Assembly: GCA_965242695.1 (NCBI GenBank)
Contig: CBDESU010000002.1
Location: forward strand, 1 to 64,000
Direction of reading: 5' to 3'
From: Cenarchaeum sp.
GTDB lineage: Archaea; Thermoproteota; Nitrososphaeria; Nitrososphaerales; Nitrosopumilaceae
DNA length: 64,000 nucleotides
Shown: positions 20,625 through 49,807 of the stretch, in pieces
Position numbering within the stretch: position 1 is the stretch's first letter
Layout of the letters: each line of letters starts with the position of its first letter
Notes under the pieces: generated by a model
The model's input: the letters and a program-made list of their open reading frames with translations, nothing else
Databases searched by the model: none
Told to the model about the DNA's origin: nothing
Made by a program: the position numbers and the translations under genes

Positions 20625-20986
20625 TGCATCGGAGGGACGCAGAGGCCGCCAGAGCCGCGCCGCCTCTTCGGGCCTTGCGCAGATGTACCGCGTGTGGGGA
20701 GCCCCCCCCCCCCTGCCGGCCTCCCATGCCGCATCGCAGGCCTGCCCGGGGTCCCTGCCGTGCGCGACGATCCCGCCGCCGGCGACGGCGATCCACTCGC
20801 CCATGCACTTTTCCGCATCCTTGGGATCCATTGCGTTCAGGAAGTCCATGCTCTTCCTGGCGTTCTCGTCGATCTGCGTGCACTGCGTGGGATATCCGAC
20901 GCGCATGTCCCCGGGCGGTATGATCACGTCCCCCCAAACATGAGGGGACGTCCCTCGTCGGCGCGCCGGCCGCTCTCGTCCGCCAT
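20625..20986 (-). pseudogene. DUF5678-like cassette gene, frameshifted
   Basis: MADESGRRA then a frameshift into DVIIPPGDMRVGYP...MGEWIAVAGGGIVAHGRD; paralog of 40515-40862. Confidence 0.75.
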
Positions 20987-21059
20987 GCTCGGGCCGGGAC
21001 AGCCCCCTGTTTGAGCGGCGCGATCGGGCGCCGCGGGGGGCGTGCATGGCGCGCCCCGG

Positions 21060-21249
21060 CGCGGCCGGTTCGGGGGCCGATGGCTCAAACAGGGCGGGGC
21101 GGCCCGGCGAATCGATGGCAGGGGAGTCAGCCTGCGAGGGCGATGCCGGGCGCGCCTTTGAGACGGACGATGTCGAGGCGAGCCCGGACAGGGGGGAGTC
21201 AGCCTGCGAGGGCGATGCCGGGCGCGCGCTTACCTGGAGCGAGTCCGAG
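21060..21249 (+). repeat. ~190-bp direct repeat, copy 1 (5' part of antitoxin-like gene)
   Basis: Near-identical to ~22487-22676. Contains an internal duplication of ggggagtcagcctgcgagggcgatgccgggcgcgc. Confidence 0.85.
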
Positions 21250-21302
21250 ACTGGCGCGTCGGACATTTCACGGTTTATATTGACATCCCGCAGAGCCGTT
21301 GC

Positions 21303-21941
21303 GTGGTCGTGCGCCAAGAGGCCGCTAGGCAGGCGGCGGGGATGCTGCAGGACGCTGTGCAGGTGCCAAGTGGCGGGGGTGTGCCCCTCGGGCCGCGGCA
21401 GGCCGGCGCAGTGCCGGGCGGATCGCGCGCGATCATGCCTAGGCCGGGTAGCAGGTTTAGCGACGAAGAGCTGGGCGCCAGACTTGGCGTGCCCCTGGCG
21501 GGATACATACGCATCAGCCACGAGAACAGGTGCATCGCACTCGTGGACAGGCAGGATGGCGACCCATGGGACGGCAACATAGCCGTGTACGTAGGCCGGG
21601 AGATGCGCGGAGGCCAGCGGGCAGATCGGTCGACGGACGCCGACAGCCCTGATCTGCCCCTCTCGGAGGTGGAAGGGTACGCGGTGCTCGACTTTGCAAG
21701 GGAGGGCGGCATGCTCGTGCTGGACAGGGTCGCAGAGTGCGACTCGCTCAGCCTTGAGAAAAGGGACGGGCGGGACGTAGCCGTCTTCAAAACGAGGGCA
21801 GTCGACGGCGGGGCGTGTGATGACGAGGAACTGAACCCAGAGGTCGAGAGGGCGCTCCAGTCCATAGAGTCTGGAACGTTTGTTGGCAAGAGGTGCACTG
21901 TTGACGAGTATATCGGGCATGTCAAGAGGGTTGTGGAATAA
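21303..21941 (+). CDS. SRA-like domain fused to RelB-like antitoxin tail (paralog of 50103-50732)
   Basis: 'FSDEELGARLGVP..G.IRISHEN.CI.LVDR...Y.G' is shared with 50103-50732. Tail 'PEVERALQSIESG..VGKRCTVDEYI'. TATA tttatat at 21274. Confidence 0.65.
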   Translation: MVVRQEAARQAAGMLQDAVQVPSGGGVPLGPRQAGAVPGGSRAIMPRPGSRFSDEELGARLGVPLAGYIRISHENRCIALVDRQDGDPWDGNIAVYVGREMRGGQRADRSTDADSPDLPLSEVEGYAVLDFAREGGMLVLDRVAECDSLSLEKRDGRDVAVFKTRAVDGGACDDEELNPEVERALQSIESGTFVGKRCTVDEYIGHVKRVVE

Positions 21942-21982
21942 TGCCGCACTGGGAAATTGAGTACGATAACGGTTCTGTCTAA
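21941..21982 (+). pseudogene. Truncated RelE-like toxin (13 codons)
   Basis: TAATG overlap; MPHWEIEYDNGSV* resembles MPLWEVKNEG at 50732. Followed by unrelated AT-rich DNA. Confidence 0.6.
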
Positions 21983-22540
21983 TATTCGAGACTTGGTCTG
22001 ATCTTTAATTGAATACGCGGTCGCGTGGATCATCCACGTGGGTTGGTGCCATTTGCACTTTGACGTTGGAGTCGGTTTTGTGAAATGCGGGAAGCGATAT
22101 CTCTTTAAATTTTCCCTGTTCATTCATGTCGAATCTCATATATTGATTTGTTTGAGTTTGCCTAAACCCGTGCACCGGGCCTTGACACTAAAATTACCCC
22201 CTGGGCGTCGGCGGCACAATGTGTGAAACGATTCTGATCCACAGGTCAAAGCGCGGCGGAATCGCCGTGAAAAAAACGGGCGAGTGTGAATACGAGGCGC
22301 AGTCCAGTCCAAGGACACCGGGCGGTACAGAATCGCATACGTGCTCGGCAGGTGGTGCCGCAGTTGCAAGGCGTTCGCGCACACCAGCAGGGCGCGCATG
22401 GCGCGCGTTCGGGCCCCTGGCGCCGGGCGCGCCCCGGCCGCCCCGACGCGCGCGCCGCCTGCCAGGGCCCGAACGCGCGCCCCGGCACGGCCGGTTCGGG
22501 GGCCGACGGCTCAAATAGGGCGGGGCGGCCCGCCGAATCG

Positions 22541-22780
22541 ATGGCAGGGGAGTCAGCCTGCGAGGGCGATGCCGGGCGCGCCTTTGAGACGGACGATGTC
22601 GAGGCGAGCCCGGACAGGGGGGAGTCAGCCTGCGAAGACGATGCCGGGCGCGCGCTTACCTGGAGCGAGGCCGAGACCATGTCCATTCTTGCGGACCCCG
22701 ACTCGATGAGGTTGCTTGCAGAGAGCGATGCAGACATGCGGGCCGGACGGGTGTCGGTGTGGAAGCCGGAAGACATGTAG
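22541..22780 (+). CDS. Small Phd/YefM/RelB-like antitoxin (neutralising-tail type), no adjacent toxin seen
   Basis: 'ETMSILADPDSMRLLAESDADMRAGRV' matches the 'ETL.IL.DP..M..I.E...D..AGR' antitoxin tail pattern. Confidence 0.55.
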   Translation: MAGESACEGDAGRAFETDDVEASPDRGESACEDDAGRALTWSEAETMSILADPDSMRLLAESDADMRAGRVSVWKPEDM

Positions 22781-23284: not shown

Positions 23285-23757
23285 CTACTCCCGGGCCGTC
23301 CTTTCCATGGTCAGGGTCTGCCTGTAGTCGTCAAACTTGACCGAGTACTGGATAAAAACATTCGACCGCTCCACGACGATGAGCGGCCGGTTTCCAAGCT
23401 GGACAATGTCCTTTTCGGAGATAGATGCGAGGACTTTTCCCAGGTCGATCCTTAGTCCCTTGTACATGATCTCGATGCGCACAAGCGTTCGGTACACCTT
23501 GAACCGTCCGAACGGCGTCGCCAGTTCCGTTTTGGCAATCGCATCGAGGTCTATGCCGATCCAGTCGGCGCCTTTCTGGTGATGAACGTGTGGTCGGCGC
23601 CCGAGTCGGCCAGGGCCATGGCCCCGCAGGCGCTGTCGGATCCGCCCCGCCTTGCCGAACGGGCGTTGGCGATTCTGATCGGAATCCTCGGCCGCATCAC
23701 CGCGCGTGGAATGCCCCTGTCGTCCGCTTCGTAATCCTTGGCGTAGCCAAACGCCAT
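23285..23757 (-). pseudogene. Retropepsin-like aspartic protease, frameshifted
   Basis: LADSGAD motif present. A 1-nt deletion near 23570 (gaaaggcgccg vs gaaaggcggccg in the paralog) splits the ORF; the homologous upstream start is also lost. Confidence 0.8.
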
Positions 23758-23783
23758 TCAGTCCCGCGGCTTGCCTTTTGTCT

Positions 23784-24236
23784 CTATAGCCAACCCATCT
23801 CTGGGTATGCGCCCGGCTCGTCAATGTAGTACATGAACGGCTCCTTGCCCGACGCCGCCTTGATCGCATCCTTGAGCACCTTCCGGCCGTCCTTGCCGTG
23901 CGCGACGATCCTGCGCCCTTGTATGGCGATCCACCCCTCCCTGTACGGTTCCAGGTCGCACGGCAGCAGCTCTTCGCGAAACTCCACCTCTGGGACGCCC
24001 CTGTCGATCGACACAAGGCGGATCATGGGCCACCTGCCGGCGGCCCTGCGCCCCGCCTTGTTCACCGCCTCAACGTCGCTTCCGTGCGCCACGACGGACG
24101 AGCCGGATATGGCTATCCACTCGCCCCTGTACGGGGCCTTGTCCTTGAGCGTCATCGACTTCCAAAAGGCCCCTTCTTCCGGGCTGTCCGGCGTGAACCT
24201 CATGGGGGGGACGCTCTCTTCCTCTTCCAAGGACAT
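23784..24236 (-). CDS. Tandem DUF5678-like domain protein
   Basis: Two 'Y.G.WIAI.G..VAHG.D..V...A' units. Confidence 0.8.
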   Translation of the reverse strand: MSLEEEESVPPMRFTPDSPEEGAFWKSMTLKDKAPYRGEWIAISGSSVVAHGSDVEAVNKAGRRAAGRWPMIRLVSIDRGVPEVEFREELLPCDLEPYREGWIAIQGRRIVAHGKDGRKVLKDAIKAASGKEPFMYYIDEPGAYPEMGWL

Positions 24237-24453: not shown

Positions 24454-24960
24454 CTACTCCTGGGCCGTCCTTTCCATGGTCAGGATCTGCCTGTAGTCGT
24501 CAAACTTCATCGTATACTGGCTAAAGACGCTTGATCGCCCTGCGACGACATACGGCCGGTTCCCAAGCTGGACAACGTCCCTTTCGGGAATAGACGCGAG
24601 GACTTTTCCCAGGTCGATCCTCAGTCCCTTGTACAGGATCTCGATGCGCACAAGCGTTCGGTACACCTTGAACCGTCCGAACGGCGTCGCCAGTTCCGTT
24701 TTGGCAATCGCATCGAGGTCTATGCCGATCCAGTCGGCCGCCTTTCTGGTGATGAACGAATGGTCGGCGTCCGAGTCGGCCAGGGCCTCGGCCCTGTAGC
24801 CGCTGTCGGATCCGCCCCTCCTTGCCGAACGGACGTTGCTGATTCTGATCGGTATCCTCGGCCGCATCACCGTGCGTGGAATGCCCTTGTCGTCCGCTTC
24901 GTAATCATTGGTGTAGCCAAACGCCATTCGATCCCACGGCTTGCCTTTTGTCTCCGTCAT
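24454..24960 (-). CDS. Retropepsin-like aspartic protease with DSG>DSD change
   Basis: Full-length ORF with LADSDAD where paralogs have LADSGAD, and second motif VVAGRSSVF. Start overlaps the upstream stop. Confidence 0.8.
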   Translation of the reverse strand: MTETKGKPWDRMAFGYTNDYEADDKGIPRTVMRPRIPIRISNVRSARRGGSDSGYRAEALADSDADHSFITRKAADWIGIDLDAIAKTELATPFGRFKVYRTLVRIEILYKGLRIDLGKVLASIPERDVVQLGNRPYVVAGRSSVFSQYTMKFDDYRQILTMERTAQE

Positions 24961-25715: not shown

Positions 25716-26220
25716 CTACTCCCGGGCCGCCTTTCCATAGTCAGGGTCCGCCTGTAGTCGTCAAACTTCATCGTATACTGGCTAAAGACGCTCGATCGCC
25801 CTGCGACGACATACGGCCGGTTCCCAAGCTGGACAATGTCCCTTTCGGGAATAGAGGCGGGGGCTTTTCCCAGGTCGATCCTCCGCCCCTTGTACAGGAT
25901 CGCGATGCGCACAAGCGTGCGGTACACCTTGAACCGTCCGAACGGCGTCGCCAGTTCCGTTTTGGCAATCGCATCGAGATCTATGCCGATCCAGTCGGCC
26001 GCCTCTCCGGTGATGAACGAATGTCGGCGCCCGAGTCGGCCAGGGCGGCGGCCCCGTAGCCGCTGTCGGATCCGCCCCTCCTTGCCGAACGGACGTTGGT
26101 GATTCTGATCGGAATCCTCGGTTGCAATACCCTGCGTGAAGTGCCCTTGTCGCCTGCATCGACATCCTTGAGGTAGTCGGATGTCATTCGATCCCACGGC
26201 CTGCCTTTTGTCTCCGTCAC
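25716..26220 (-). pseudogene. Retropepsin-like aspartic protease, two frameshifts
   Basis: LADSGAD followed by a frameshift near 26022, with a second 1-nt deletion near 25730. Confidence 0.8.
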
Positions 26221-27382: not shown

Positions 27383-27384
27383 TG

Positions 27385-27828
27385 TCAACCCATCACCGAG
27401 TATGCGCCGGGCTCGCCTATGCGGTACATGAACGGTTCCTTGCCCGACTCCGCCTTGAGCGCCGCCTTGAGCACCTCCCGCGCGTTCTTGCCGTGCGCGA
27501 CGATCCTGCGCCCGCGTATGGCTATCCACCCTCCCCTGTACGGGTCTAGGTCGCACGGCATCAGCTCCTCGTAAAACTCCATCTCTGGGAGGCCCCTGTC
27601 GATCGACACAAGGCGGATCATGGGCCACTCGCCGGCCGCCCGGCGCCCCGCCTTGTTCACCGTGTCAAGGTCGGCTCCGTGCGCCACGATGGACGAGCCG
27701 GATATGGCTATCCACTCGCCCCTGTACGGGGCCTTGTCCTTGAGCGTCATCGACTTCCAAAAGGCCTCTTCTTCCGGGCCGTTCGGAGCAAACCTCACGT
27801 TGGGAACCCCTTCCTCTTCCAAGGACAT
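27385..27828 (-). CDS. Tandem DUF5678-like domain protein
   Basis: Same two-unit pattern as the other array members. Confidence 0.8.
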   Translation of the reverse strand: MSLEEEGVPNVRFAPNGPEEEAFWKSMTLKDKAPYRGEWIAISGSSIVAHGADLDTVNKAGRRAAGEWPMIRLVSIDRGLPEMEFYEELMPCDLDPYRGGWIAIRGRRIVAHGKNAREVLKAALKAESGKEPFMYRIGEPGAYSVMG

Positions 27829-28387: not shown

Positions 28388-29869
28388 CTATCCCATCAGC
28401 AGGTACAGCCAGAGCGGGACGACGACCGTCCCGTCCCCGATCATCCCCGCGGTGTCGCGCGAGACGGCCACCGACAGCGGCGGGTCGAAGCGGCGCGAAA
28501 AGCGCAGCAGGCCCTCCAGGTCCGACCTGTCCACGCGCCGCTTGTACTTTATCCCTATCGGGACGGGGCCGCCGCGCAGCCTTATGACCTGGTCGACCTC
28601 GGCCCTGCCGCCGTTGTGCCAGTAGTGCGGCATGGTATCGGCCGATGCGGGCGCAAGCGCGCGCCACATACGCCTCGTGTGGTGGCCGGCGATCGTCTCG
28701 GCCATCATCCCGGCCTCTGCGGGATCGCCCGCCCCGTCCGGCCCCGTGTGGTGCGCGGTGGCGTTGCGCATGCCGACGTCGTTCACGTACGCCTTGCGCG
28801 GCCTGCGGCGGCGTATTGCGGGGCTCGGCGTGTAAAAGTCCGAGTACGACACGAGAAACGCGCGCTCCAAGAGGCCGCAGTACATGTCGATGGTGTCCTT
28901 TTTGACCCCGAGGCTGCTCGACATCGCGTCCTTGTTGATCATGCGCGGGGATCTCCACGAGATCTGGTAGAAGAGCCGGTTGAGGATGTCCGGCCGCCTC
29001 ACCCTGCCGGCCGCCACGACGTCCTTGTAGAGCGCAAGATCCCGGTACGCCCGGATCGCCTCGGCCCTGTAGGCGGGATCCGCGCTGCCGGCGACCCCGG
29101 GGTACCCCCCGTACGCCATGTACTCCGAGAGGTGCCGCAAGAGGCCGTCCTTGGCCATGGTGAGCCCCTCCAGGGCCCGCCGGACGCCCTCGTGGAACGG
29201 CCGCGCATCGCCGGCCGCCGCCGACTCGCCGAGGCTCCTGCGCATGTCCGTTCCGGCCGCCGCCAGCGCCTCTGCATGCCCCGGGTCCCTGAACTCGACA
29301 TAGTCGGCAAAGCCCATCGTGGCCACCTCTTGGTGCCACATCCGCCCGGCGAGCGGCTCGGACGAGCCGGCGGGCATGTCGACGCTTGACGATCCCGACA
29401 CGACGAACCTTATCGGGCAGGACTGGTCTACGAGGTTCTTGGCTGCGCGCTGCCAGTCGCCGGCCAGGCGGATCTCGTCGAGTATGGCGTATACGCTCCC
29501 CCCCAGATCGTGGAAGGACTCGCCGAGGATGCGGGTCACGTGCAGATTGAGCAGGCGCGGCAGGCTTCCCGCATCGGGAACAGGGCCCTGGTCGTCAAAT
29601 GTGAGGAACAGGACGCGCCGGGGATCGGTGCCGGACGAGATCAGGTGCTCGATCAGCTGGTGCAGCAGGGTCGTCTTGCCGACCTGCCTGGCGCCGAGGA
29701 TGCCCTGGACGGGCCGCTTGTCCAAATGGCTTACCATTGCATCGTAGTCGCGCAGCCTGAACGGGCGCCGCATCGCCGGCGGCACTACGCCCGTCGTCCA
29801 CCACGGATTCATTCGCCGCATGGCCACCAGCAGCGCCTCGTCGTCAATGTCGTCGCCGGCAGCGGCCAT
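28388..29869 (-). CDS. AAA_14 ATPase with DUF4143 C-terminal domain
   Basis: 'NPWW', Walker A GARQVGKT, Walker B AILDEI, 'SGSSS', 'YGGYP', 'K.YVNDVG.RN' and 'EVD...PI.IKY'. Confidence 0.88.
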   Translation of the reverse strand: MAAAGDDIDDEALLVAMRRMNPWWTTGVVPPAMRRPFRLRDYDAMVSHLDKRPVQGILGARQVGKTTLLHQLIEHLISSGTDPRRVLFLTFDDQGPVPDAGSLPRLLNLHVTRILGESFHDLGGSVYAILDEIRLAGDWQRAAKNLVDQSCPIRFVVSGSSSVDMPAGSSEPLAGRMWHQEVATMGFADYVEFRDPGHAEALAAAGTDMRRSLGESAAAGDARPFHEGVRRALEGLTMAKDGLLRHLSEYMAYGGYPGVAGSADPAYRAEAIRAYRDLALYKDVVAAGRVRRPDILNRLFYQISWRSPRMINKDAMSSSLGVKKDTIDMYCGLLERAFLVSYSDFYTPSPAIRRRRPRKAYVNDVGMRNATAHHTGPDGAGDPAEAGMMAETIAGHHTRRMWRALAPASADTMPHYWHNGGRAEVDQVIRLRGGPVPIGIKYKRRVDRSDLEGLLRFSRRFDPPLSVAVSRDTAGMIGDGTVVVPLWLYLLMG

Positions 29870-30532: not shown

Positions 30533-30895
30533 TCATTGCTCTGGGACGTAGAGCGAGGGGATGCCGAACCACGGCACCTCTTCGGGCTTTGCGTAAATGT
30601 ACCGCATGTGGGGAGCCCCCTTGCCGGCCTCCCGTGCCGCATCGCAGACCTGCCCCGGATCCCTGCCGTGCGCCACGATTTCGCCGTCGGCCACGGCTAT
30701 CCACTCGCCCATGTACTTTTGCGCCTCTTCGGGCTTCATTGCGTTGAGGAATGCCAAGTTCTTCACGGCGCCCTCGTCGATCCCTGTGCACTGCGGGGGG
30801 TACCCGACGCGCATGTCCTCGGGCGATATGATCACGTCCCCTTCGGACATGAAGGGAGGTCTCGGCTCGGCGCCGGGGCCGTCGCTGTCCGCCAT
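30533..30895 (-). CDS. DUF5678-like protein (single domain); downstream protease decayed
   Basis: KYMGEWIAVADGEIVAHGRD; paralog of 40515-40862. Confidence 0.8.
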   Translation of the reverse strand: MADSDGPGAEPRPPFMSEGDVIISPEDMRVGYPPQCTGIDEGAVKNLAFLNAMKPEEAQKYMGEWIAVADGEIVAHGRDPGQVCDAAREAGKGAPHMRYIYAKPEEVPWFGIPSLYVPEQ

Positions 30896-31219: not shown

Positions 31220-31325
31220 GGGAACGAGGGCAGGTCGGCGGCAAGCGCTACTGCTACGCTCCGCGCGCAGCAGGGCCACCATCCTCCGAGGGGAACGAGG
31301 GCAGGTCGGCGGCAAGCGCTACTGC
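31220..31325. repeat. 35-bp perfect direct repeat x2 with 36-bp spacer
   Basis: gggaacgagggcaggtcggcggcaagcgctactgc at 31220 and 31291. Confidence 0.85.
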
Positions 31326-31457
31326 GGCTACAACAGTCGAACGCATGGCGCCCGGTACTGCGCCGCAGAGGCCGGCACGGCCGCCCGCCCGCCCGCTGCG
31401 GCCGCCGGACGGCCGGAAGATCGCATTGCATGCACTCGTGCCAGCGAGGGAGCATCC

Positions 31458-33857
31458 CTACGAGGCAAGGCGGAGCATCCCGCCCCGCTCCTCGACCCTT
31501 CCATTCTCCACAAGCGAAGAGACCGCATCGCGGACGATCCCCTTCAGCCCCCTGACCTGGTTGCGCGTGAACATCCTGGACAGGCGCCCGCTGGCGACCT
31601 CGACAAGGCGGCCCGAGTCCATGGCCGCCCCCTTTGACCGCAGCGCGGACAGGACGATCCTGCCGGCCAGAACGGCTGCCCGCCGCCTGCGCTGCCTCTG
31701 CTCGTCCATCCCATCCTTCCTGCATTCCCACCTGCCGTCCTCAAGCCCGGCGATCAGGCCATCGGATGCGAGGGCCGCCAGGACCAGGCCCACGTCCTTG
31801 ATGTCCCTCCCTGCTATCCCGGTCGCCCCGAGGATGCCGTCCATGTCCCACACCCTGGCCGGTTCGCCTAGCATGGTGTCGATTACGCGCCCGCGCATCG
31901 GGTACTTCCACTCCCCGTCGCATTCCGACTCGAGGCGGCCGGCGCGCTCTAGCTGCCCGAGCATGACCGACACGTGCACGCATGCGATGCGCTCGCCGCG
32001 CCGCGCCATCTCGGAGCGCACAAAGCGCGCGTTTATCGGGTGGTTGGCCGTACGCGCGCACTCTAGCACGAGCCGGTGCTGGCCGGCCAGGACGGCCCCG
32101 TACCTTTTCACATCCTCGGCCGCGTCGGCCCCCTCCCTGACCCAGAGAAGCGCGTTCCTGCCGTCAGGCCCCTCGGCCCTTGCAAATTCCCTGCCGTCCC
32201 TCAGGTAGCGCATCAGGACCGAGGCGGGAATGCGGCTCTCGGCCTCGGGCAGGTAGAGTACGTCCCGCCCCGACGCGTACCGCTCGGCGTCCGGCCTGAG
32301 CGCCGCCTCGAGGACCTTGCGCCCCCTGTCGGTCACCGACAGCACTCCCTCGTTGCGGCTCAGGAGCCCCTGCCGCTCCAGGCCGGCTGCAATGTGCGGG
32401 ACATCAAGCCGCCCGGATCCCGCGCCGCCGTCGCCGCCGTCCCGCTCGCCCCGCCAGTACCCCTCCAAGTCGAACTCGTGCTGGATGTCGGCGAGTAGGT
32501 TCTTGCGGTCGGCGCCGCCGCAACCCACCCACGAGGCCAGGGACGCGATGTCGGTGCGCTCTCCCGATGCGATGTCGCGCGCGGCGACCGGCAGGCCCTC
32601 GCCCGTCCTGTACTGCGACCAGGCGGCCCTCATGGCCGCTACCGTGTCAAGGAACGCACGCACGAGGCCGTCGCCATCGCCGTCGCCGCCTGCATGCCCG
32701 TACGCTGCGGCCCCCTCGTCGTCCGTGGTTAGGCACGCGGCGCGCCGCACGATCGACGCATAGTCCTTGCCGTATCGTGCGGCAAGGCCGCCTGCGCCCG
32801 CCCTGCCCCTCATGCGGACGTGCCCGATCAGGTCGTCCAGGACGGCCTCGCCGCTCTCGCACTCCTCAAAGTGCAGCAGCTCGAGGTACCTTGTCCGCGG
32901 GGATCCAGAGGCGGATGCCCTCAGGCGGGGCTGGTACCATGCGACGGCCAGGAACCGGCCTTGCATGCCGGCAGCCTGCAGGGCATCGCCGCCGTGCGGC
33001 AGGCCGTCGGGAGGTGGAGGGCTGCCGCCGGGGCGCAGCGCAGAGACCGCCTCGCCCCCCAGGCCCCTGAACGTGACCATCGAGTCGTCTAGGTCCTCGA
33101 CCGTGCCAGGCAGAATGACCGGCGCGCCCAGGCGCTGCCACGAGTCGTCCTGGACGGATGCTATTTCGCAAAAGGCGTCCATCTCGAGCGAGTTCGAGAG
33201 CGCATCCAAGTCGGACGCCGAGGCCTTTAGAAAGTCCCAGTCGCCAAGGCACGGGGTGCGGCCGGGCAGAGGGGCGGCTTCGGTACTGGATACGCAGTGC
33301 AGGCGGTTTGTCAGCGGCATCGGCGTCGCGGGGCCGATCCGGCAAAAGCCGAGCGGGATGGCCTCGGCCACATCTTGCGGCGCGCGCACCGACATGCACG
33401 TCCCGAGGGAGGGCACGACCGCAGAGATTACGGTTCGAGGGCCAGCGCCAACGTCCGGCGGAGACGACTTTTTGAACACCCAAGAGTCAAAGTGCGCGGT
33501 GCTCGCGCCGGCATCGCGTACTTTGACGAGGTAGCGGGCCGCGCTCCTGGCGCAGCCTAGGAATACGTCGTCGAACGCCCGCGGCGTCTCGCATGTGAGC
33601 CGCGCCTCGGCAAGCCAGCCGCACGCCTCGGCCATCCGATCCCTTGTCGTGCCCGCGCCCTCGGCATCCTCGTGCCGCACGTCGGCGGGGTCCCTGTCGA
33701 GCAGCAGCCTGGCGTTGCCCGTCGTCAAGACCATTGCGGCGTAGATGTTGGAGAGCTGCGCGCGCAGCGATCGCTCGCTGAACAGCCACGGAGCGCCGTC
33801 GGAAGGGTCGCCGCCGTGCCCGCCGCTGCCGTCGGCATCGCCGCCCCCGCCGGCCAT
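31458..33857 (-). CDS. Large hypothetical protein with several C-terminal winged-helix-like repeats
   Basis: 799 aa. 'LERQGLL.....VTDRG', 'LERAGRL', 'LASDGLI' and 'LVENGRV' look like wHTH recognition-helix/wing segments. Divergent from drmA. Confidence 0.7.
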   Translation of the reverse strand: MAGGGGDADGSGGHGGDPSDGAPWLFSERSLRAQLSNIYAAMVLTTGNARLLLDRDPADVRHEDAEGAGTTRDRMAEACGWLAEARLTCETPRAFDDVFLGCARSAARYLVKVRDAGASTAHFDSWVFKKSSPPDVGAGPRTVISAVVPSLGTCMSVRAPQDVAEAIPLGFCRIGPATPMPLTNRLHCVSSTEAAPLPGRTPCLGDWDFLKASASDLDALSNSLEMDAFCEIASVQDDSWQRLGAPVILPGTVEDLDDSMVTFRGLGGEAVSALRPGGSPPPPDGLPHGGDALQAAGMQGRFLAVAWYQPRLRASASGSPRTRYLELLHFEECESGEAVLDDLIGHVRMRGRAGAGGLAARYGKDYASIVRRAACLTTDDEGAAAYGHAGGDGDGDGLVRAFLDTVAAMRAAWSQYRTGEGLPVAARDIASGERTDIASLASWVGCGGADRKNLLADIQHEFDLEGYWRGERDGGDGGAGSGRLDVPHIAAGLERQGLLSRNEGVLSVTDRGRKVLEAALRPDAERYASGRDVLYLPEAESRIPASVLMRYLRDGREFARAEGPDGRNALLWVREGADAAEDVKRYGAVLAGQHRLVLECARTANHPINARFVRSEMARRGERIACVHVSVMLGQLERAGRLESECDGEWKYPMRGRVIDTMLGEPARVWDMDGILGATGIAGRDIKDVGLVLAALASDGLIAGLEDGRWECRKDGMDEQRQRRRRAAVLAGRIVLSALRSKGAAMDSGRLVEVASGRLSRMFTRNQVRGLKGIVRDAVSSLVENGRVEERGGMLRLAS

Positions 33858-33875
33858 CCTGGGAGGGGCCGGCGT

Positions 33876-33891
33876 TCAATGTTATATAGTA
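33876..33891. promoter_or_regulatory. Bidirectional TATA element
   Basis: A single ttatata in the 52-bp gap between ATG 33857 (-) and ATG 33910 (+). Confidence 0.6.
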
Positions 33892-33909
33892 GACGGCGCA
33901 GGCGCGGAC

Positions 33910-37863: not shown

Positions 37864-39692
37864 CGGGCAAACTGATGGTGCGGCCCTCGCAGTTTATACT
37901 GACGTATGGGCCAGGGGCCCTGCTGGAGGGACCCGACGGCCCTAGGCTCGTACGGGACGCCGGTATCGGCCTGTTCTCCGAGCACGGGGGAAAGGATCCG
38001 AACCAGTACAGGATAGACGACGACAGGATGTCAAGGGGACTCCTTGGCGGAGCCAAGATATACCGCCTGCCGACAGAGTCCGAGACGGGCGAGGGCGAGC
38101 CGTACAGGACGATGGAGTTTCCCAGGTGGAAGCTCTGCCTCAACCGGCACGGGAAGGGAGGGGACTACCTCCTGCACAGGAGGCAGTCGTGCCCCGACTG
38201 CGGGGAAGACAGGTGGCAGGGCGCCATCAGATTCGTCGTAGCCTGCAGTGAAGGCCACTTGGACGAGCTCAACTGGGACTATGTCGTGCACCGCAAGTCG
38301 GGCCATGCGGTCGACACGTCAAAGCACAGGATAGTCGAGGGGGAGGCCTTTTACTGGCACCGCCGCGGCGGCGCGCTCGGCGACATCGTAATAAGGTGCT
38401 ACTACCGCGACCAGTGCCATGCGCAGGCAAACCTAGGCGAGGTGTACTACCGAGCCCACCCATGCAGCGGCCGCCACCCGCACACGGAGGTTACAAGCCC
38501 TCCCACCAGGCCGATGAACTGCAAGGCGTCCGCCCGCGTGGTGCCGCGCCAGTCGGCCGCCCTGAGGATAGCCGAGACCAGGACTCTGCTGTCCATACGG
38601 CCTGTCACAGAGGTGCATACGCTGCTCCAAGACGATGCCCTCAAGGGCGCCATAGCCCAAGAGAGGGCGCACGGTGAGATCGATGCAGAGGGGTTCAAGA
38701 GAATCGTCGGCATACAGGAGGAGACGGGCAACATAGGCGCCGACACGAGGTACAAGCTCCTCGATGCTCCGTGGAGCGTCGTGGAGGATGCCCTAGGCTA
38801 CCTTGCAAAGCGCGACCTGACGACGTATGATGCGCTGATCAAAGACGAGCTGGCGGGCCTCCTGCTGGCATCTCTGCACGGGGCGCCGCCGCAAGGATCG
38901 CCCGACACGGACGGAGTCAAGCATGTCCTTGAAGTCAGGCCCGACAGCAGCGAGGTGCTTGATGCGGGCGGCGCCCTGATGCGCGTCACACCGGTTCAAA
39001 AGCTCAGGACGGTCACCGTGCAAAAGGGGTTTAGGCGAGGCGTGGGCGGGTGGGAGTCGCTCCCCGAGCTGGTCGACGTGTCGTTTGCCAGGGGAGGCAA
39101 GAGGTGGTACCCGGGCGTCGAGTACATGGGCGAGGGCATATTCATGCGGCTCGAGGAGAACGACGGCTGGGCTAGCATGCAGGCGGACGGAGCGCCCGGC
39201 ACATGGCTCGACATGCTCAAGGGGCACGACCGCAAGCGCTACCCGTCTCATGTGTTCAGGGACGACGGCGCGAGGGAGGAGATGCACCCCGGCTTTGTCT
39301 GGTGGCACACGCTGGCCCACCTTCTGGTGCGCACCATCGGCGAGCATTCGGGATATGCGGCAGCGGCGATCAGGGAGAGGGTGTACTTTGAGCAGGACGA
39401 GAGCGGCGGGAAGTTCAGGGGCGGGTTGCTGCTGTACGCCACGCAGCCTGGCAGCGAGGGCACGATGGGAGGGCTGGTCGGCATGATGCCGCACATGAAG
39501 GGCCTGCTAGACGAGTCGTTCGAGAGGGGCAGGCTGTGCTCGGGCGACCCCCTGTGCAGCGAGAGCGAGCTCAAGGAAGGCGGCCACAACGGGGCGGCCT
39601 GCTACGCATGCCTTCTCAACTCGGAGACGTCGTGCGAGCACAGGAACATGTGGCTGGACAGGAACGTGCTCGGGCAGGGGCTGCGGTCGTAG
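37860..39692 (+). CDS. drmB: DISARM-type DrmB (DUF1998)
   Basis: 'RPSQFI.TYGPGA', 'RFVVAC.EGHLDE', 'HTLAHLL', 'GY....IRERVY', 'GTMGGL', 'CSGDPLC' and 'GAAC.AC....ETSCE.RN..LDR'. ATGA overlap with drmA. Confidence 0.88.
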   Translation: MTGKLMVRPSQFILTYGPGALLEGPDGPRLVRDAGIGLFSEHGGKDPNQYRIDDDRMSRGLLGGAKIYRLPTESETGEGEPYRTMEFPRWKLCLNRHGKGGDYLLHRRQSCPDCGEDRWQGAIRFVVACSEGHLDELNWDYVVHRKSGHAVDTSKHRIVEGEAFYWHRRGGALGDIVIRCYYRDQCHAQANLGEVYYRAHPCSGRHPHTEVTSPPTRPMNCKASARVVPRQSAALRIAETRTLLSIRPVTEVHTLLQDDALKGAIAQERAHGEIDAEGFKRIVGIQEETGNIGADTRYKLLDAPWSVVEDALGYLAKRDLTTYDALIKDELAGLLLASLHGAPPQGSPDTDGVKHVLEVRPDSSEVLDAGGALMRVTPVQKLRTVTVQKGFRRGVGGWESLPELVDVSFARGGKRWYPGVEYMGEGIFMRLEENDGWASMQADGAPGTWLDMLKGHDRKRYPSHVFRDDGAREEMHPGFVWWHTLAHLLVRTIGEHSGYAAAAIRERVYFEQDESGGKFRGGLLLYATQPGSEGTMGGLVGMMPHMKGLLDESFERGRLCSGDPLCSESELKEGGHNGAACYACLLNSETSCEHRNMWLDRNVLGQGLRS

Positions 39693-40862: not shown

Positions 40863-41230
40863 TGTAAGGCGCAGAATAGCCCCTCTATTTAACCGGTGCG
40901 TCGGGCGCCGCACGGGCTACCCGGCCAGGCGCCCCGTCCGAGCCGCACCCGGGGCGCCGTGCCTTGTACACCTAAGCGCCGCGGTGCGGAGCCGGCGCGG
41001 GGCTAGTCCGAGGAGGATGTTCGCGCCGGCGGGCGGCGCGGCAAGGATACAGCATCCACAAACGAGGGGTGCAAGGGTTCGCCGCCGCGGCCCGCTCTCG
41101 TGACGGCAACGCCTCGCATGCGCCAAGAGGCGGAGGCCCGGCTTCTAGCCGATCCGGTCCCGTGCCCCTGTGGTGCATCGGCGCGTAGTGACAGTCAAAC
41201 CGCGCCCACATCATGGAAGTGTACGGCCGG

Positions 41231-41599
41231 TCATTGCCTTGGGACGTAGAGCCAGCCGCTGCCGAGCCAAGGCACCTCTTCGGGCCTTGCATAGATGTAC
41301 TCCACGTGGGGGCACCCCTTGCCGGCCTTCCACCCGGCCTCGCAGACCTGCATGGGATCCTCGCCGTGCGCTACGATTCCACCGCCGGCCACGGCTATCC
41401 ACTCGCCCATGTACTTTTGGGCCTCCTCGGGCGTCATTGCGTTGAGGAAGTCCATGTCCTTCTTGGCGCCCTCGTCGATCTCCGTGCACTGCGGGGGGTA
41501 TCCGACGCGCATCTCCTCGGGCGGTATGTACCGGACTTTGCCTAGGCCTGGTATGGGAGGAAGCGGCGGCCCGGCGCGCCTGTCGTTCTCGTTCGCCAT
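41231..41599 (-). CDS. DUF5678-like protein; downstream protease decayed
   Basis: KYMGEWIAVAGGGIVAHGED. Confidence 0.8.
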   Translation of the reverse strand: MANENDRRAGPPLPPIPGLGKVRYIPPEEMRVGYPPQCTEIDEGAKKDMDFLNAMTPEEAQKYMGEWIAVAGGGIVAHGEDPMQVCEAGWKAGKGCPHVEYIYARPEEVPWLGSGWLYVPRQ

Positions 41600-41867: not shown

Positions 41868-42360
41868 TCACTGTCCTGTGGGCATCTCAAGCCGAAACCC
41901 CATCGGGCGGTCGATGGGCATGCAAGCCCTGTCGAAAAAGCCGCCGAGTCCAAGCAAGAGCGGGGATGGTGAGCCCGGATCCCGCGGCCGCGGCGTGCCG
42001 GGGACAGGGGCGTCGGACGTGCCGATGTCGCGCCATGTGCCGTTGCGCCGTGCGCCCAGAGTGCCCTGCCGCACCGCATATCCTCCGCAGCGCGCCCTTG
42101 TCGATCAGAGCGTCCGGCCGCCGGGGCGGCCGCACGGTCAGTGCCGGCGCAACCGCGCCGGCGTGCATCTGCCCGCCGGCGGGCCGGCCGGCCGGGCGGC
42201 TGCGCTTACACGGTTTGGGAGCCCGTCCGGGAACCTAGCGCGAACCGCTGGGGCCGCCCCAGCCGCTGCCGGCCCGCCGCCTCCCGGCGACGGCACTGTC
42301 ATATTCGGGCAGCCAAGGTGCATTGCACGACGAGGGAAGGTGTGGCGGTCACTGCTCTGG
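41868..42360 (-). pseudogene. Decayed aspartic protease
   Basis: Remnant 'DIG...VP.TP..RDP....LLLGLGGFFDR' aligns to 39995-40531; catalytic motif lost. Confidence 0.7.
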
Positions 42361-42817: not shown

Positions 42818-43332
42818 CTAGGCCACGGGCAGCTCGAGCCAAGACTCTTCCCTCGAGTGGTTGATGCACATGTTGACCCTGTCAAAAAAGCCGTCGAGTC
42901 CGAGCAGGAGCGGGCGGCGGATGCCCGGGTCCCGCGACCACGGCGTGTCGGGTACAAGGACGTTGCCACGCCGATGTCGATCCACGATCTGCCGCACAGG
43001 ATCTCCATGCCCAGCTGTGCTACGTAGGCCCAAAATTGCCCGGAGGCGCTGTACATCTTCCGCCGCGTGCCCTCGTCGATTGGAATTCCCAGCTCCTGAA
43101 ACAGCCAGAAGGGCGCCGCCGGCGCATCTGCCCCGGTGTCCAGCGCCGCGTCTGTCAAGATATCCGGTTCGGCTAGCCCGGGGGCGCTGTTCGGGGGCCT
43201 GGGTCGAACCAAGAGGGCCGGCTTCCTAACCAATGCCAGCCCGGTGCTCCCCGCCAACGGCACCGTCACATTCATGTAGTCGAATCGCATCCACGCCAAG
43301 GGGAGGCGCGGCAGGTCATTCCTTTGGAACAT
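42818..43332 (-). pseudogene. Aspartic protease, single frameshift
   Basis: ALDTGAD present; a frameshift near 42965 separates it from VLVPDTPWSRDP...LLLGLDGFFDR. Confidence 0.8.
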
Positions 43333-43889: not shown

Positions 43890-44033
43890 GACAGGGCTGC
43901 GCTGCGCCAAGAGGCGGGGCTTGGCGCCTGCCGATGCCAGCCCGTTGCCGTCCAGCGACGGCACCCTTACATTCATGTAGCCGAACCGCATCCATGCCAA
44001 GTCGAGGTGCGGCCGGTCGTCACTTTGGGACAT
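43890..44033 (-). pseudogene. Truncated aspartic protease N-terminus
   Basis: MSQSDDRPHLDLAWMRFGYMNVRVP aligns with paralog N-termini; similarity stops before the DTG motif. Confidence 0.65.
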
Positions 44034-47420: not shown

Positions 47421-47426
47421 GGGCAG

Positions 47427-47627
47427 CTAGTCCTTAAGCGCTACGGCCGCGGCGCGGCGCACTGAAGCGGGCAGTGCGGACTCACGGCGCCGGCCAGCGG
47501 CTATGCAGACCATCTTGGCAAGCGGGCTCGCAATCCCGGCGCCGCCCAGCGACGGCACTCTCACACTTGGGTACTCAAACCGTATCCACGACGGAGGGAA
47601 GTGCGGCCGGTAGTCACTTTGGTACAT
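47427..47627 (-). pseudogene. Truncated aspartic protease N-terminus
   Basis: MYQSDYRPHFPPSWIRFEYPSVRVP aligns with the protease starting at 40531; ends before the catalytic motif. Confidence 0.65.
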
Positions 47628-47958
47628 AGAGCCAAGGCACCTCCTCGGGCTTCGCATAGATGTAGCGCATATGCAGGGCCCCCTTGCCGGCCTTGCGTCC
47701 CTCTTCGCAGACCTGCTCGGGATCCTCGCCGTGCGCTACGATTCCGCCGCCGGCCACGGCTATCCACTCTCCCATGTACTTTTCCGCCTCCTTTGACGTC
47801 ATTGCGTTGAGGAATTCTAGGCCCTTCTTGGCGTTCTCGTCGATCTGCGTGCACTGCGGGGGGTATCCGACGCGCATGTCCTCGGGCGCTATGATCACGT
47901 CTCCTTCAAACATAGGTGGTAGTCCCACGCCGGCGCGCCGGCCGTTCTCGTCCGCCAT
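47614..47958 (-). CDS. DUF5678-like protein
   Basis: KYMGEWIAVAGGGIVAHGED. Confidence 0.8.
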   Translation of the reverse strand: MADENGRRAGVGLPPMFEGDVIIAPEDMRVGYPPQCTQIDENAKKGLEFLNAMTSKEAEKYMGEWIAVAGGGIVAHGEDPEQVCEEGRKAGKGALHMRYIYAKPEEVPWLYVPK

Positions 47959-48915
47959 AGCAGGGCGGCGATCCCCCCTTATTTAGACGGTCCGGCGGGG
48001 CGCCGCGTGGGCGCAGCCTGTCCAAGCGCCCCGTCCGAGTCGCCCCGCGCGGCGCAGCGGCCTTGTGCGCCCCGAGTGCCGCTGTGCAGAGCCGGCACGG
48101 CGCCAAGAGGCGACAGGACGGCTCGCGCCGGCGGGCAGGCGCGGCAAGGGGACGGCGGCCGCAAACGAGGGGCCGCAAGGGTTTGCAGGCGCGGCGCGCC
48201 CTCGCGACGGCAGCGCCGCGCATGCGCCAAGAGGTCGAGGCCCGGCGCCCATCCGATGCCGGTCCCGTGCCCCCCATCCCCACTGCGGCGCATCGGTGCG
48301 CTGGGACGGTCGGGCCGCTCCCGCATCATGGGAGCGTATGCAGGTCATTGCTCTGGGGCGTAGAACGAGGGGATATCGAGTCCGAACAGGCAGGCCCTCT
48401 GCGCCTCCGCGCCGACGCGCGGCGCGCCACCCGCTGCCGACACCGGCATAGTGGCAAGGGCTGGGGCGGCGGATCAGGCGGCGGCAGACGAGGTGCGAAC
48501 AGCAACAAGGGCATGCGGCGCGCCCATGCTCGCGGCGCAGTGAAAACCATCGATCCACTATTCATCCTCCCGTCCAAACATCGAAGCCCAAACCTGCGCC
48601 GCAGGCGGACGCGCAGGCGGGACATCAAGGTCAAAACTTGCAAGCCAGGCGGCCGGACATTGGCATTGGCGGCGGATACGCGGACAGGCGGCCGCTCATT
48701 GGACTGCAGCTGCGCACAAGCGGGCCGCGGATGCGCCAGTCGGTGGAGGCGGCATGGATCATGCGGCGCGTCCGGCCGACGGCGGGCGCGCAGCGCGCCG
48801 GCTGTGGCCTTGCCAATCCCTTCAATCCCCCACACGACTATCGCGCCCGTCATGCCGCCGGGTGGGCGCCGGATGCGGGGGTTGTGTTAATATGCGCGAG
48901 AGGCCGCGGCGGGCC

Positions 48916-49734
48916 GTGGGGGACAGGCTGCGCCAGGAGGTTGCGCACGACAGCTCTGCGGCTAGCGGGCGGCGCGGCTTGGATCGCGCAGGACGCATGG
49001 CCTCAGACGCGCACCGCGGTTCCGACGCAGCGGCGGCCGCGCTTCCAAGGGAGGGCGAGAAGTTTACCGAGGGCCAGATGGTCGAGAGGTTTGGCACCTC
49101 GCCGCCTGGCGGCATACGATTAAGCAAGATATCGAGCGACATAATTCTTGTCCGCAGCGCAGACGTCCCAAATCACTGCGATGACGGCGATCCTGGAGAC
49201 TGCATCTACCATGGCGGCTACGCCGAGGAGCATGCCGACCGGATGATCGACTGGCGCAACAAGGCGCTGAGCGAATCGGGAAAAAACGGCAACCGTGTGC
49301 TGCTTTTTGCCAAAGACGGCGACAAGCTCGTGTTCCACGGCTGCGTCGAATGCGCGGGGTGGGAGCACGGGAACGTCCCGAACCGCGGCAAGGCAGTCAC
49401 CTTCAAAATGAGGCGGATCGGCAGTGCGGCGGCGCGTCCCGCGGGCCCTGCAAGGTACGCCACAGCCGTGAAGATTGCCAGGGACGAGGACGGCGGGTAC
49501 GTTGCTACCGCCCCCGCACTGCCGGCCTGCATATCCCAAGGCGAGACGAGGGCAGAGGCCCAAGAAAACTTGGCAGAGGCCATATCGCTGTATTTGGAGT
49601 ATCATTTGGAAGGCAAAGAGGACTTTTCGCCCGATCTTCCCGCCTCTCTTGACGTTGCCAGTATCCATGTGGACGGGGGCAGTGTCGACACAAGGATTGC
49701 CACTGTGCCGCATTCACGTCCTCGGGCGGTGTGA
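48916..49734 (+). CDS. SRA-like domain fused to HicB-family antitoxin
   Basis: N-terminal 'GGIRLS....IILV......DD......IY.GG......N.AL......RVLLF.K.....F.G.VE...V.FKM' is SRA-like. C-terminal 'DEDGGYVA..PALPACISQGETRAEA.ENL.EAI.LYLE' is a clear HicB pattern. Start uncertain. Confidence 0.75.
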   Translation: MGDRLRQEVAHDSSAASGRRGLDRAGRMASDAHRGSDAAAAALPREGEKFTEGQMVERFGTSPPGGIRLSKISSDIILVRSADVPNHCDDGDPGDCIYHGGYAEEHADRMIDWRNKALSESGKNGNRVLLFAKDGDKLVFHGCVECAGWEHGNVPNRGKAVTFKMRRIGSAAARPAGPARYATAVKIARDEDGGYVATAPALPACISQGETRAEAQENLAEAISLYLEYHLEGKEDFSPDLPASLDVASIHVDGGSVDTRIATVPHSRPRAV

Positions 49735-49807
49735 CCGCGTCCCCTTCAGGCACGGGCGGCATCGCCTCGCCGCCTCGCCGGCGCGCCGGCCGTTCTCGCC
49801 CGCCATG
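49714..49807 (-). pseudogene. 5' remnant of a DUF5678-like gene (3' remnant at ~48345-48385)
   Basis: MAGENGRRAG / MPPVPEGDAVTPPEDV match paralog N-termini. 'ctacgccccagagcaatga' near 48345-48365 matches the end of 30533-30895. Confidence 0.6.

Follow-up and report, generated by a model that had tools for sequence, protein, structure and literature searches.

A DUF5678-retropepsin gene pair, expanded and decaying from the protease side in a sponge-dwelling Cenarchaeum: a candidate toxin-antitoxin-like module

In the genome of a Cenarchaeum species, a small gene for a DUF5678 protein and the gene for a retropepsin-like protease behind it form a cassette that has expanded in two separate lineages and decays from the protease side. 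On balance, we favor the view, drawn from sequence and structure modelling, that the pair is a putative type II toxin-antitoxin (TA)-like module, in which the retropepsin would be harmful unless bound by DUF5678 and would represent a new kind of toxin. This reading gains support from the one-sided decay, from fusions of DUF5678 to antitoxin-type DNA-binding domains, and from a complex model that passed its controls. The copy-number expansion, its one-sided decay, and the fusions to antitoxin-type domains are new here; no description of the DUF5678-protease pair was found in the literature.

Results

The cassette array

The window, i.e., the whole 64,000-nucleotide stretch analyzed, belongs to an ammonia-oxidising, sponge-dwelling archaeon and is present in sponge metagenomes. 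The first-pass annotation had described about 13 minus-strand cassettes with 11 intact first genes. As shown in Table 1, 12 DUF5678 genes were located at 20.7-48.0 kb together with one remnant, every copy on the minus strand, and 11/12 genes were intact, the exception being the 20.7-kb copy with a stop after 20 codons. The array exceeds chance expectation by a wide margin (own-HMM E 1e-26 to 1e-34). The two subfamilies also proved correct: a single-domain gene with a DTG protease and a double-domain gene with a DSG protease, the 12 genes comprising 8 single-domain and 4 double-domain ones (16 domains). The AT-rich, TATA-like box recurred about 30-24 nt 5' of the ATG in 13/13 copies, and the genes overlapped or abutted as claimed (spacing of -17 to +2 nt).

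The array exists, but the number of working cassettes had been overstated, since an intact protease with canonical motifs was found in only 2/12 copies (P0001 and P0002). One of the other proteases was full length with DSD replacing DSG, three were frameshifted (23.3, 25.7, and 42.8 kb), five were present as remnants only (behind 30533, 41231, 42349, 44020, and 47614), and one copy had lost the integrity of both genes. Most window copies are decaying rather than active. In the same genome, 18 further family genes were located in 8 other clusters, and the family is not confined to the island.

Table 1. Cassette genes, remnants, and context genes in the window
Feature	Position	Strand	Remark
Broken single-domain DUF5678 gene, no protease behind	20658..20986	-	ATG at 20986, core in other frame
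DSG-type protease, frameshifted	23285..23787	-	frameshift also in independent contigs
Double-domain DUF5678 gene, intact, 150 aa	23784..24236	-	
Full-length DSD protease (DSG replaced), probably inactive	24454..24960	-	ATGA overlap with partner
Double-domain DUF5678 gene, intact, 149 aa	24957..25406	-	
DSG-type protease, frameshifted, approximate ends	25727..26220	-	
Double-domain DUF5678 gene, intact, 148 aa	26217..26663	-	
P0002, intact retropepsin-like protease, DSG motif, 167 aa	26879..27382	-	
P0004, double-domain DUF5678, intact, 147 aa, partner of 26879-27382	27385..27828	-	
AAA_14 + DUF4143 ATPase (context)	28388..29869	-	PADLOC PDC-S01
Single-domain DUF5678 gene, intact, 120 aa; short protease remnant behind	30533..30895	-	
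drmA helicase (context); true start probably further into frame	33745..37863	+	PADLOC E 0
drmB (context)	37860..39692	+	PADLOC E 7.5e-169
P0001, intact retropepsin-like protease, DTG at D65, 178 aa	39995..40531	-	17-nt partner overlap
P0003, single-domain DUF5678 gene, intact, 115 aa	40515..40862	-	
TATA-like box of P0003 copy, ~30-24 nt before ATG	40886..40892	-	spacing recurs, 13/13 copies
Single-domain DUF5678 gene, intact, 122 aa; protease lost	41231..41599	-	
3' remnant, degraded protease belonging to 42349 copy	41880..42050	-	
Single-domain DUF5678 gene, intact, 115 aa	42349..42696	-	
DTG-type protease, frameshifted	42818..43332	-	frameshift absent from another study's contigs
Single-domain DUF5678 gene, intact, 117 aa	43316..43669	-	
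Deleted protease, 5' remnant	43931..44033	-	
Single-domain DUF5678 gene, intact, 116 aa	44020..44370	-	
Deleted protease, 5' remnant	47535..47627	-	
Single-domain DUF5678 gene, intact, 114 aa	47614..47958	-	
13th copy, promoter + 5'-end remnant	49714..49806	-	

Identity of the two proteins

The domain calls held, DUF5678 by Pfam PF18929 and the protease by its retropepsin fold and motifs. In the HMM check, 16/16 DUF5678 domains exceeded the cut-off (23.2 bits; P0003, 41.2 bits; P0004, 62.1 bits), but support for the protease was modest, P0002 exceeding the Pfam Asp_protease_2 cut-off (E 2.4e-5) and P0001 falling below it (E 0.0084). The clan AA motifs, hydrophobic-hydrophobic-D(T/S)G and a second hydrophobic-hydrophobic-G, are intact in 2/12 window copies; in an alignment of 45 sequences, D65 and G145 were invariant and G67 nearly so. 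The single-lobe retropepsin fold was clear in the structure model (pLDDT 91.2), which matched FIV protease with a Z of 10.3, and the protease profile matched retroviral proteases at E 2e-7. The claim that the protease is cytoplasmic agreed with a rough check, in which no scored protease frame had a 17-residue hydropathy above 1.2 within its first 40 residues. Single-lobe clan AA proteases are, to our knowledge, common in prokaryotes, and nearly all of them have no assigned function.

DUF5678 is a family of 8739 clusters at 50% identity. Fold searches with the domain gave no match among solved folds and none to HicB, although it may still resemble the HicB N-terminal domain; hhalign against one HicB gave a probability of 1.9%. 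DUF5678 was also present in pandoraviruses and fused to a dUTPase-like protein, and one DUF5678 query had no match in plasmids and phages. No functional paper on DUF5678 was found in the literature searched.

Distribution and gene order

Across five genomes of the genus, the copy numbers were 30, 10, 0, 0, and 0, and the family was found in 39/201 genomes of the phylum. The proposed adjacency is conserved elsewhere: a protease homolog was directly 3' of DUF5678 in 31/44 other archaeal loci, being split or truncated in 7 of these 31, and no protease followed in the remaining 13/44. The protease was likewise directly behind DUF5678 in 11/16 metagenome loci. When loci were centered on the protease, DUF5678 lay 5' of it in 20/27, whether the partner was intact or not (2 of these 20 were also in the query alignment); the other 7/27, weaker protease matches, were without DUF5678, and one of them had another RHH-like gene upstream.

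The modelled complex

Two protease and two partner chains were modelled together, and the complex scored 0.70 with a partner pLDDT of at least 70, the best of three controls scoring 0.02; the mark for such scores, roughly applicable here, was reached by 116/157 solved and 2/215 mismatched pairs. The three runs scored 0.44, 0.74, and 0.70 and may not have an interface in common. The pair modelling was far above its controls, but the runs disagreed on the contacts (agreement of at least 0%). The complex model speaks for a possible direct binding of protease and partner. The best modelled interface comprises protease residues 116-124, 151-152, 160-162, and 168-172, which lie apart from D65; next to the active site, residues 68-69 and 147 are contacted by a single partner copy.

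With this interface away from D65, the model is equally compatible with activation and inhibition. DUF5678 may be an activator, adaptor, or sensor: attached to the outer face of the dimer, it would turn the protease on, by dimer stabilization or substrate delivery, in response to a cue such as a phage protein or the phosphorylation of a receiver domain. Retropepsins require dimerization, and the modelled contacts are on the outer hairpin and the C-terminal dimer strands, not on the dyad. Receiver-DUF5678 fusions were found in 3 of 22 longer proteins scanned, distant protease relatives match defense-linked models (see below), and RimB acts within a partner complex, according to the available text of PMC11957791. 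If DUF5678 were an activator and nothing else, however, damage to one gene should disable the system just as damage to the other would, whereas the partner alone was damaged in 0/40 cassettes; RHH and Phd-type fusions are, moreover, a repressor/antitoxin architecture. We consider activation unlikely.

Fusions and C-terminal tail of DUF5678

Among the same 22 longer proteins, RHH_1 exceeded the cut-off in one, P0075, and three others had PhdYeFM (E 2.8e-5 and 9e-4) or RelB-like (8e-4) matches below the cut-off. An RHH-type domain was fused to, or just 5' of, DUF5678 in 5 archaeal loci with a protease behind (RHH_6 in 3/5, best E 1.2e-4). By Pfam, the DUF5678 copies of this genome have no DNA-binding domain, so any autoregulation here would not be of the usual type. 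At least 3 of the last 4 residues were hydrophobic in 98/147 family representatives, and such a C-terminal end suits retropepsin specificity.

Such a tail, being exposed, could also make DUF5678 the protease's own substrate or degron in an ImmA/ImmR-like, non-toxic switch, in which cleavage would inactivate the fused DNA-binding or receiver domain. The DNA-binding fusions and the protease-repressor precedent treated in the available text of PMC2701414 are in line with this. Nevertheless, most DUF5678 proteins, including all in this genome, carry no fused regulator, so that cleavage would lack an output, and the 30-fold expansion and one-sided decay are left unaccounted for; we regard a switch as distinctly improbable.

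One-sided decay

Over 40 cassettes, 30 of this genome (G000) and 10 of a congener (G004), the protease alone was damaged in 21, both genes in 4, and the partner alone in none. This genome had 11 intact pairs, 2 further ones in which the usual start is damaged and an in-frame GTG is present, 15 cassettes with only the protease damaged or deleted, and 2 with both genes damaged; the congener, scored by eye on three-frame translations, had 2, 6, and 2 intact, protease-only, and both-damaged cassettes, respectively. The chance of zero partner-first lesions was 0.014-0.0003, assuming 12-16 independent lesions and a length-based partner-first probability of 30-40%; the copies are related, so the independent lesions may be fewer than counted. 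Two window frameshifts were the same in contigs of runs X1 and X3 and absent in another study's run. Because contigs of independent runs match the window at both, the lesions are real, and the two frameshifts are strain-variable.

In the available text of PMC13617665, validated Photorhabdus TA systems had 185 toxin-only, 186 both, and 8 antitoxin-only damaged cases. By analogy, one-sided protease loss is the decay pattern of validated TA systems as given there. The same pattern would be expected if the partner were just kept for a separate function.

We give little credence to neutral amplification, in which a harmless operon copied in a duplication-prone genome now decays, the shorter promoter-proximal gene persisting while duplications are anchored at a GC-rich upstream repeat and deletions take the distal part: many small genes are tandemly duplicated in the genome, only 2/12 window copies are intact, and pairwise dN/dS is high (rough NG86; summed 0.79 for 376 partner pairs and 0.56 for 28 protease pairs), but dN/dS is below 1 for most close pairs, two separate lineages expanded, and polarity-free point lesions hit the protease (7 in this genome behind intact partners) and never a partner with an intact protease.

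Neighborhood

The interleaved drmA, drmB, AAA_14-DUF4143, and HicB domain genes were found in the window as annotated. The defense-island reading fits the drmAB genes, but the other clusters adjoin housekeeping genes plus PIN, methylase, and IS genes; it is the weaker reading, and nothing ties the pair to phage. TA-family genes lay within about 1.5 kb of 9/42 other loci and IS/integrase genes in 3, a count from 150/180 ORFs with no background rate. PADLOC 2.0 gave no match for P0001-P0004 and no consistent match among 48 DUF5678 sequences, none of which was matched by a PDC model. Distant protease relatives matched PDC-M08B (7/45), PDC-M52B (6/45), and the type III CRISPR-linked aspartyl protease (2/45).

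Discussion

The pair shares with type II TA systems (RHH-, Phd/YefM-, and AbrB-type antitoxins; available text of PMC2701414 and PMC13617665) two small coupled genes in conserved order with the partner first, patchy distribution, clustering, toxin-first decay, RHH/Phd-like domains on the partner in some relatives, and putative direct binding, here modelled. It differs in that the putative toxin is an aspartic protease, which is not among the toxins in the available text of PMC2701414 or TASmania (PMC6504116), and in that DUF5678 has no match among solved folds and its copies here lack a DNA-binding domain. Further points count against the TA reading: the 13/44 archaeal DUF5678 loci with no protease, the 7/27 protease matches with no DUF5678, the presence of DUF5678 in pandoraviruses and in fusions to receivers and a dUTPase-like protein, and the plasmid and phage search in which one DUF5678 query had no match.

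Structurally, the protease came closest to APRc/RC1339 of Rickettsia conorii (PDB 5c9b; Z 10.5, rmsd 2.8 A over 118 residues, 19% identity); the FIV, RSV, and EIAV proteases were on a par with it. APRc is likewise a single-lobe D(T/S)G enzyme but, in the available text of PMC4140852, is membrane embedded with surface proteins as its targets, and it lacks a DUF5678 partner, whereas the window proteases are predicted to be soluble and cytoplasmic. RimB and RloA of Pseudomonas are single-lobe aspartic proteases in operons with partners, RimB being cytoplasmic; their partners are ATP-grasp ligases, however, their substrates are polyglutamate, and RloA is secreted (available text of PMC11957791 and PMC12239564), and they are structurally more distant (9g59, Z 6.2). 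The uncharacterized single-domain COG5550/TIGR03698 and COG3577/TIGR02281 peptidases, with no partner described in the available text of PMC2642776, belong to the same clan and match 5/45 and 3/45 aligned relatives, respectively (E <= 0.001). The window proteases match neither model usefully (TIGR02281 E 0.064): P0001 had no NCBIfam match to either, and P0002 reached 13.4 bits against a cut-off of 57.95. Saci_1895, which encodes an aspartic protease as an accessory to type III CRISPR loci in Sulfolobales (available text of PMC3973734), and PDC-M08B/PDC-M52B are defense-linked and have retropepsin domains; distant relatives match them weakly, but the window proteins have no match.

For the favored antitoxin-toxin reading, the following course may be proposed. 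The layout suggests that a leaderless transcript would start from the TATA box, with the DUF5678 protein made first and the protease then by translational coupling. The protease, by fold and motif, would be a cytoplasmic homodimeric clan AA enzyme, and two DUF5678 domains would bind its two-fold dimer; two domains per dimer, as modelled, would account for the recurrent tandem double-domain partner. The partner could keep the dimer inactive through an allosteric effect exerted at the outer hairpin and dimer sheet. Alternatively, its C-terminal tail, which is hydrophobic and conserved, could occupy the substrate cleft, for which one weak set of contacts speaks. A protease whose partner has been lost, degraded, or displaced would cut an essential protein and arrest the cell. 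Such a module would be addictive, could spread by local tandem and dispersed duplication starting from two separate lineages in this symbiont, and would always give up the protease before the partner, so that orphan partners stay behind and perhaps neutralize sister copies as well.

More tentatively, and at somewhat less than an even chance, the pair may stand for a very widespread, undescribed TA class. Its toxin would be an HIV-type aspartic protease and its antitoxin a natural inhibitor, of a fold absent among solved structures, acting like a propeptide in trans, with two domains clamping the dimer and the tail plugging the cleft. The inhibitor module would be fused to RHH, Phd, and receiver domains for repressor or kinase control, and the symbiont would keep a library of diverged orphan inhibitors.

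Controls are built into the array: two intact pairs, each of its own lineage, a protease with a naturally occurring DSD motif, and orphan partners. If the antitoxin-toxin reading is true, clan AA single-lobe proteases and DUF5678 would gain a role at once, a protease would be added to the known type II toxins, and DUF5678 would be a naturally occurring protein that regulates a retropepsin.

Organization of the DUF5678-protease array in the window

Because archaeal AmoA is encoded in the genome (3.89 Mb, two contigs, 96% complete; AmoA E 2e-118) and part of the window's stretch is present in public runs labelled 'sponge metagenome', the organism is judged from its genes to be an ammonia-oxidising archaeon and is most likely a sponge symbiont. 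The first-pass annotation had proposed about 13 cassettes, each consisting of a small gene (the partner) preceded by a TATA-like element and followed by a retropepsin-like protease gene. Iterated profiles on the six-frame genome recovered 8 single-domain and 4 double-domain DUF5678 genes in the window; these 12, together with the remnant of a 13th cassette, account for the proposed number. An AT-rich box was present approximately 30-24 nt upstream of each DUF5678 ATG. This spacing is that of a leaderless archaeal transcript. The whole genome contains 36 DUF5678 domains in 30 genes; the Pfam search likewise gave 36 domains.

Eleven of the 12 partners were intact, as annotated; however, the two-gene unit was kept less well on the protease side, where only 2 of 12 genes were intact. 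The others comprised one with DSD for DSG, three frameshifted genes, five remnants, and one gone along with a broken partner. Pfam assigned the partner P0003 and both halves of the partner P0004 to DUF5678, and the protease P0002 was over the Asp_protease_2 cut-off, but the protease P0001 fell under it. The drmA, drmB, and AAA_14-DUF4143 ATPase attributed to the island were recovered, as was a HicB domain (22 and 19 ORFs scanned); among the ORFs scanned in the window, no further DISARM genes were found. A phylogeny of 40 proteases placed the double-domain DSG proteins (4 rows, 100/100) close to proteins that are single-copy in family relatives, and joined the single-domain proteins (13 rows, 100/99) with those of the congener genome G004. 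This placement suggests that two cassette lineages expanded side by side.

Features of the window
Feature	Position	Strand	Remarks
Protease P0001 (DTG)	39995-40531	-	
Partner P0003, single-domain DUF5678	40515-40862	-	
Protease P0002 (DSG)	26879-27382	-	
Partner P0004, double-domain DUF5678	27385-27828	-	
13th cassette remnant	49714-49806		promoter and 5' end only
Three related ORFs	21435-21941, 50085-50732, 48946-49734	+	shared domain without Pfam match
RelE-like ORF (by eye)	50732-51022		behind one of the three related ORFs; no Pfam match
35-36-base direct duplications flanking 35-36-base inserts	21121-21228, 22547-22654, 31220-31326		first two in a 203-base duplicate
Convergent large surface-protein-like ORFs	22-4392 (+), 7626-12551 (-)	+, -	92% identical over 1.9 kb; no Pfam match; third paralog at L061:93-5219
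799-aa ORF	31458-33857	-	divergent from drmA; no Pfam or PADLOC match
946-aa Ig-repeat surface protein	44580-47420	-	inserted between two cassettes; upstream protease cut short there
249-aa ORF of no known family, tandem duplicate (84% identical), then PIN-like ORF	57081-59556	+	tandem PIN pairs like this also in loci L057, L064

By eye, we take the three related ORFs to be SRA/YDG-like. The 21.4-kb and 50.2-kb ORFs are 70% alike; one of the three is fused to the HicB domain, and two end in an antitoxin-like tail.

Conservation of the gene order

Of 41 near relatives, 13 carried DUF5678, and of 201 genomes of the phylum, 39 did (this genome included in both counts); five genomes of the genus had 30, 10, 0, 0, and 0 copies. 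The adjacency of the two genes was kept elsewhere. Outside this genome and G004, a protease homolog lay directly behind DUF5678 on the same strand in 31 of 44 loci, 23 of these 31 proteases belonging to the search profile and the motif having first been found by pattern; 7 of the 31 were split or truncated, and 13 loci carried no protease. In the 16 metagenome loci, which are the basis for bacterial adjacency here, a protease followed DUF5678 in 11. From the protease side, DUF5678 was upstream in 20 of 27 loci (2 in the query), and the 7 loci without it were among the weaker matches. One DUF5678 query found no match in plasmids and phages, and viral contigs contained no DUF5678 locus. At locus L130, the gene upstream of a protease of this group, and overlapping it, is RHH-like and lacks DUF5678, possibly a swapped partner.

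Within approximately 1.5 kb, TA-family genes occurred at 9 of 42 loci, IS/integrase genes at 3, and BrxL at 1 (150 of 180 ORFs; raw counts without background), where DUF4258, DUF2283, UPF0175, DUF7387, and DUF4145 were presumed to be TA-type. Other clusters in the genome adjoin PIN pairs, methylases, IS110, and an IrrE-like peptidase, as well as TBP, rpiA, an ammonium transporter, and amoA.

The protease and its DUF5678 partner

The protease was modelled as a single-lobe retropepsin (pLDDT 91.2), with the best structural match shared between APRc (Z 10.5; 118 residues at an rmsd of 2.8 A) and the FIV, RSV, and EIAV proteases. D65 and G145 were invariant among 45 sequences, and in the ESM Atlas the clusters related to P0002 were all aspartyl proteases. 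On a rough check, no N-terminal hydrophobic stretch was prominent in the proteases, consistent with the annotated lack of signal peptides. In the abstracts on APRc, RimB, and RloA, these characterised prokaryotic retropepsins differ from the window proteases in cell location and partners. P0001-P0004 matched no PADLOC model, and the PADLOC candidate proteins PDC-M08B and PDC-M52B were weakly matched by 7 and 6 of the 45 protease relatives, respectively. According to passages of PMC3973734, type III CRISPR loci of Sulfolobales come with an aspartic protease. The DUF5678-protease pair might conceivably have a role in phage defence.

The partner model (pLDDT 90.9) consists of two helices, a hairpin, a helix, and a strand. 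A comparison with 48,161 PDB representatives gave no clear match (best Z 3.7), and Foldseek gave nothing at E <= 0.001 in PDB or BFVD, which proves neither a new fold nor absence. The top BFVD rows, the nearest viral structures, were the pandoravirus DUF5678 proteins A0A2U7UG46 and A0A2U7UD66, and the ESM Atlas held no named DUF5678 relative. A likeness to HicB or RNase H1-L9 was unsupported in the structure search and the HicB profile alignment. At 50% identity, the family falls into 8739 clusters. Of the 147 representatives newly listed, 98 have at least three hydrophobic residues among the last four, and tandem repeats recur (ranking by score favours such proteins). Among 22 longer members picked by eye and scanned, RHH_1 was over the cut-off in 1, PhdYeFM (2) and RelB-like (1) domains were below it, and a receiver domain occurred in 3. 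At five archaeal loci, a DUF5678 with a protease behind it either is fused to an RHH-type domain or directly follows a gene for one. The search for longer proteins yielded no natural DUF5678-protease fusion, a weak negative, as known longer members were also missed. At L075:4562-5306, a 247-aa frame with a dUTPase-like start (by eye) and DUF5678 at its end lies directly before a DSG protease.

When two protease chains were modelled with two partner cores, the score was 0.70 (runs 0.44, 0.74, and 0.70), which was high against the best of three controls (0.02), but the runs disagreed on the contacts, agreeing in at least 0% of them (partner pLDDT at least 70). Of 157 solved pairs, 116 reached the score mark, as did 2 of the 215 mismatched ones; these counts apply only roughly to this model. 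We know of no similar complex. The model supports binding of the partner to the protease dimer. In the best run, partner residues 2-18 and 63-69 were placed on protease residues 116-124, 151-152, 160-162, and 168-172, and one partner copy also contributed tail residues 74 and 76 to the interface, which there included protease residues 68-69 and 147 as well. Since the modelled interface lies away from D65, the effect of the partner could have either sign, and DUF5678 might instead act as an activator or sensor for the protease, which we regard as unlikely. That DUF5678 is a substrate of the protease or part of a regulatory switch appears less likely again.

One-sided decay of the cassettes

Across the genome, 11 cassettes were intact and 2 had a damaged usual protease start but an in-frame GTG; the protease alone was lost or damaged in 15, both genes in 2, and the partner alone in none. 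The corresponding counts in G004, taken by eye, were 2 intact, 6 protease-only, 2 both, and 0 partner-only. The chance of zero partner-first cases was 0.014-0.0003, with assumed values of 12-16 independent lesions and a 30-40% partner length share, the copies being related. Deletion polarity does not account for the pattern, as seven point lesions in this genome sit in proteases behind intact partners; neutral amplification of the cassettes is quite improbable. For validated Photorhabdus TA systems, passages of PMC13617665 give losses of the toxin alone in 185 cases, of both genes in 186, and of the antitoxin alone in 8.

Contigs of the public run X1 (possibly the source sample) agree with the window across both the 23.6-kb and the 42.96-kb frameshift, and the letters of run X3 are identical; contigs of run X6, from another study, have neither frameshift, and its 23.6-kb contig could be a paralog. 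Assembly error was thus ruled out for two of the three frameshifts in the window, the 26.0-kb one lying outside this result. Since the frameshifts are found in X1 and X3 contigs and missing in X6 contigs, protease inactivation is recent and strain-variable. Positive selection on the paralogs is not claimed, NG86 being too rough for GC-rich paralogs, and low X6 cover over drmAB was not counted, as only contigs were at hand and the sole joint across has a 25-letter side.

A putative type II toxin-antitoxin-like pair

The layout, folds, motifs, conserved order, fusions, and decay pattern were established directly, and binding comes from the model. In gene layout and decay pattern, the pair agrees with type II TA systems. 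The DUF5678-protease pair is real, and with moderate confidence we consider it most likely to work like a type II TA system, as a putative member of that class. The free protease would be harmful to the cell and the partner would restrain it; loss or displacement of the partner would release the protease, the target of which may be an essential cytoplasmic protein.

A literature search, in which subscription journals were little covered, found no publication on the pair, which is unpublished within the literature searched. The term 'DUF5678' appeared only in unrelated plant-pathogen work (PMC12135032), and an aspartic-protease TA module was absent from passages, supplements apart, of PMC6393860, PMC4158269, PMC9425974, PMC6697440, PMC2701414, PMC6504116, PMC7848895, and PMC6790972. 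If the type II TA-like reading holds, the pair, not encountered in that literature, would be an addition to the type II toxin-antitoxin systems.
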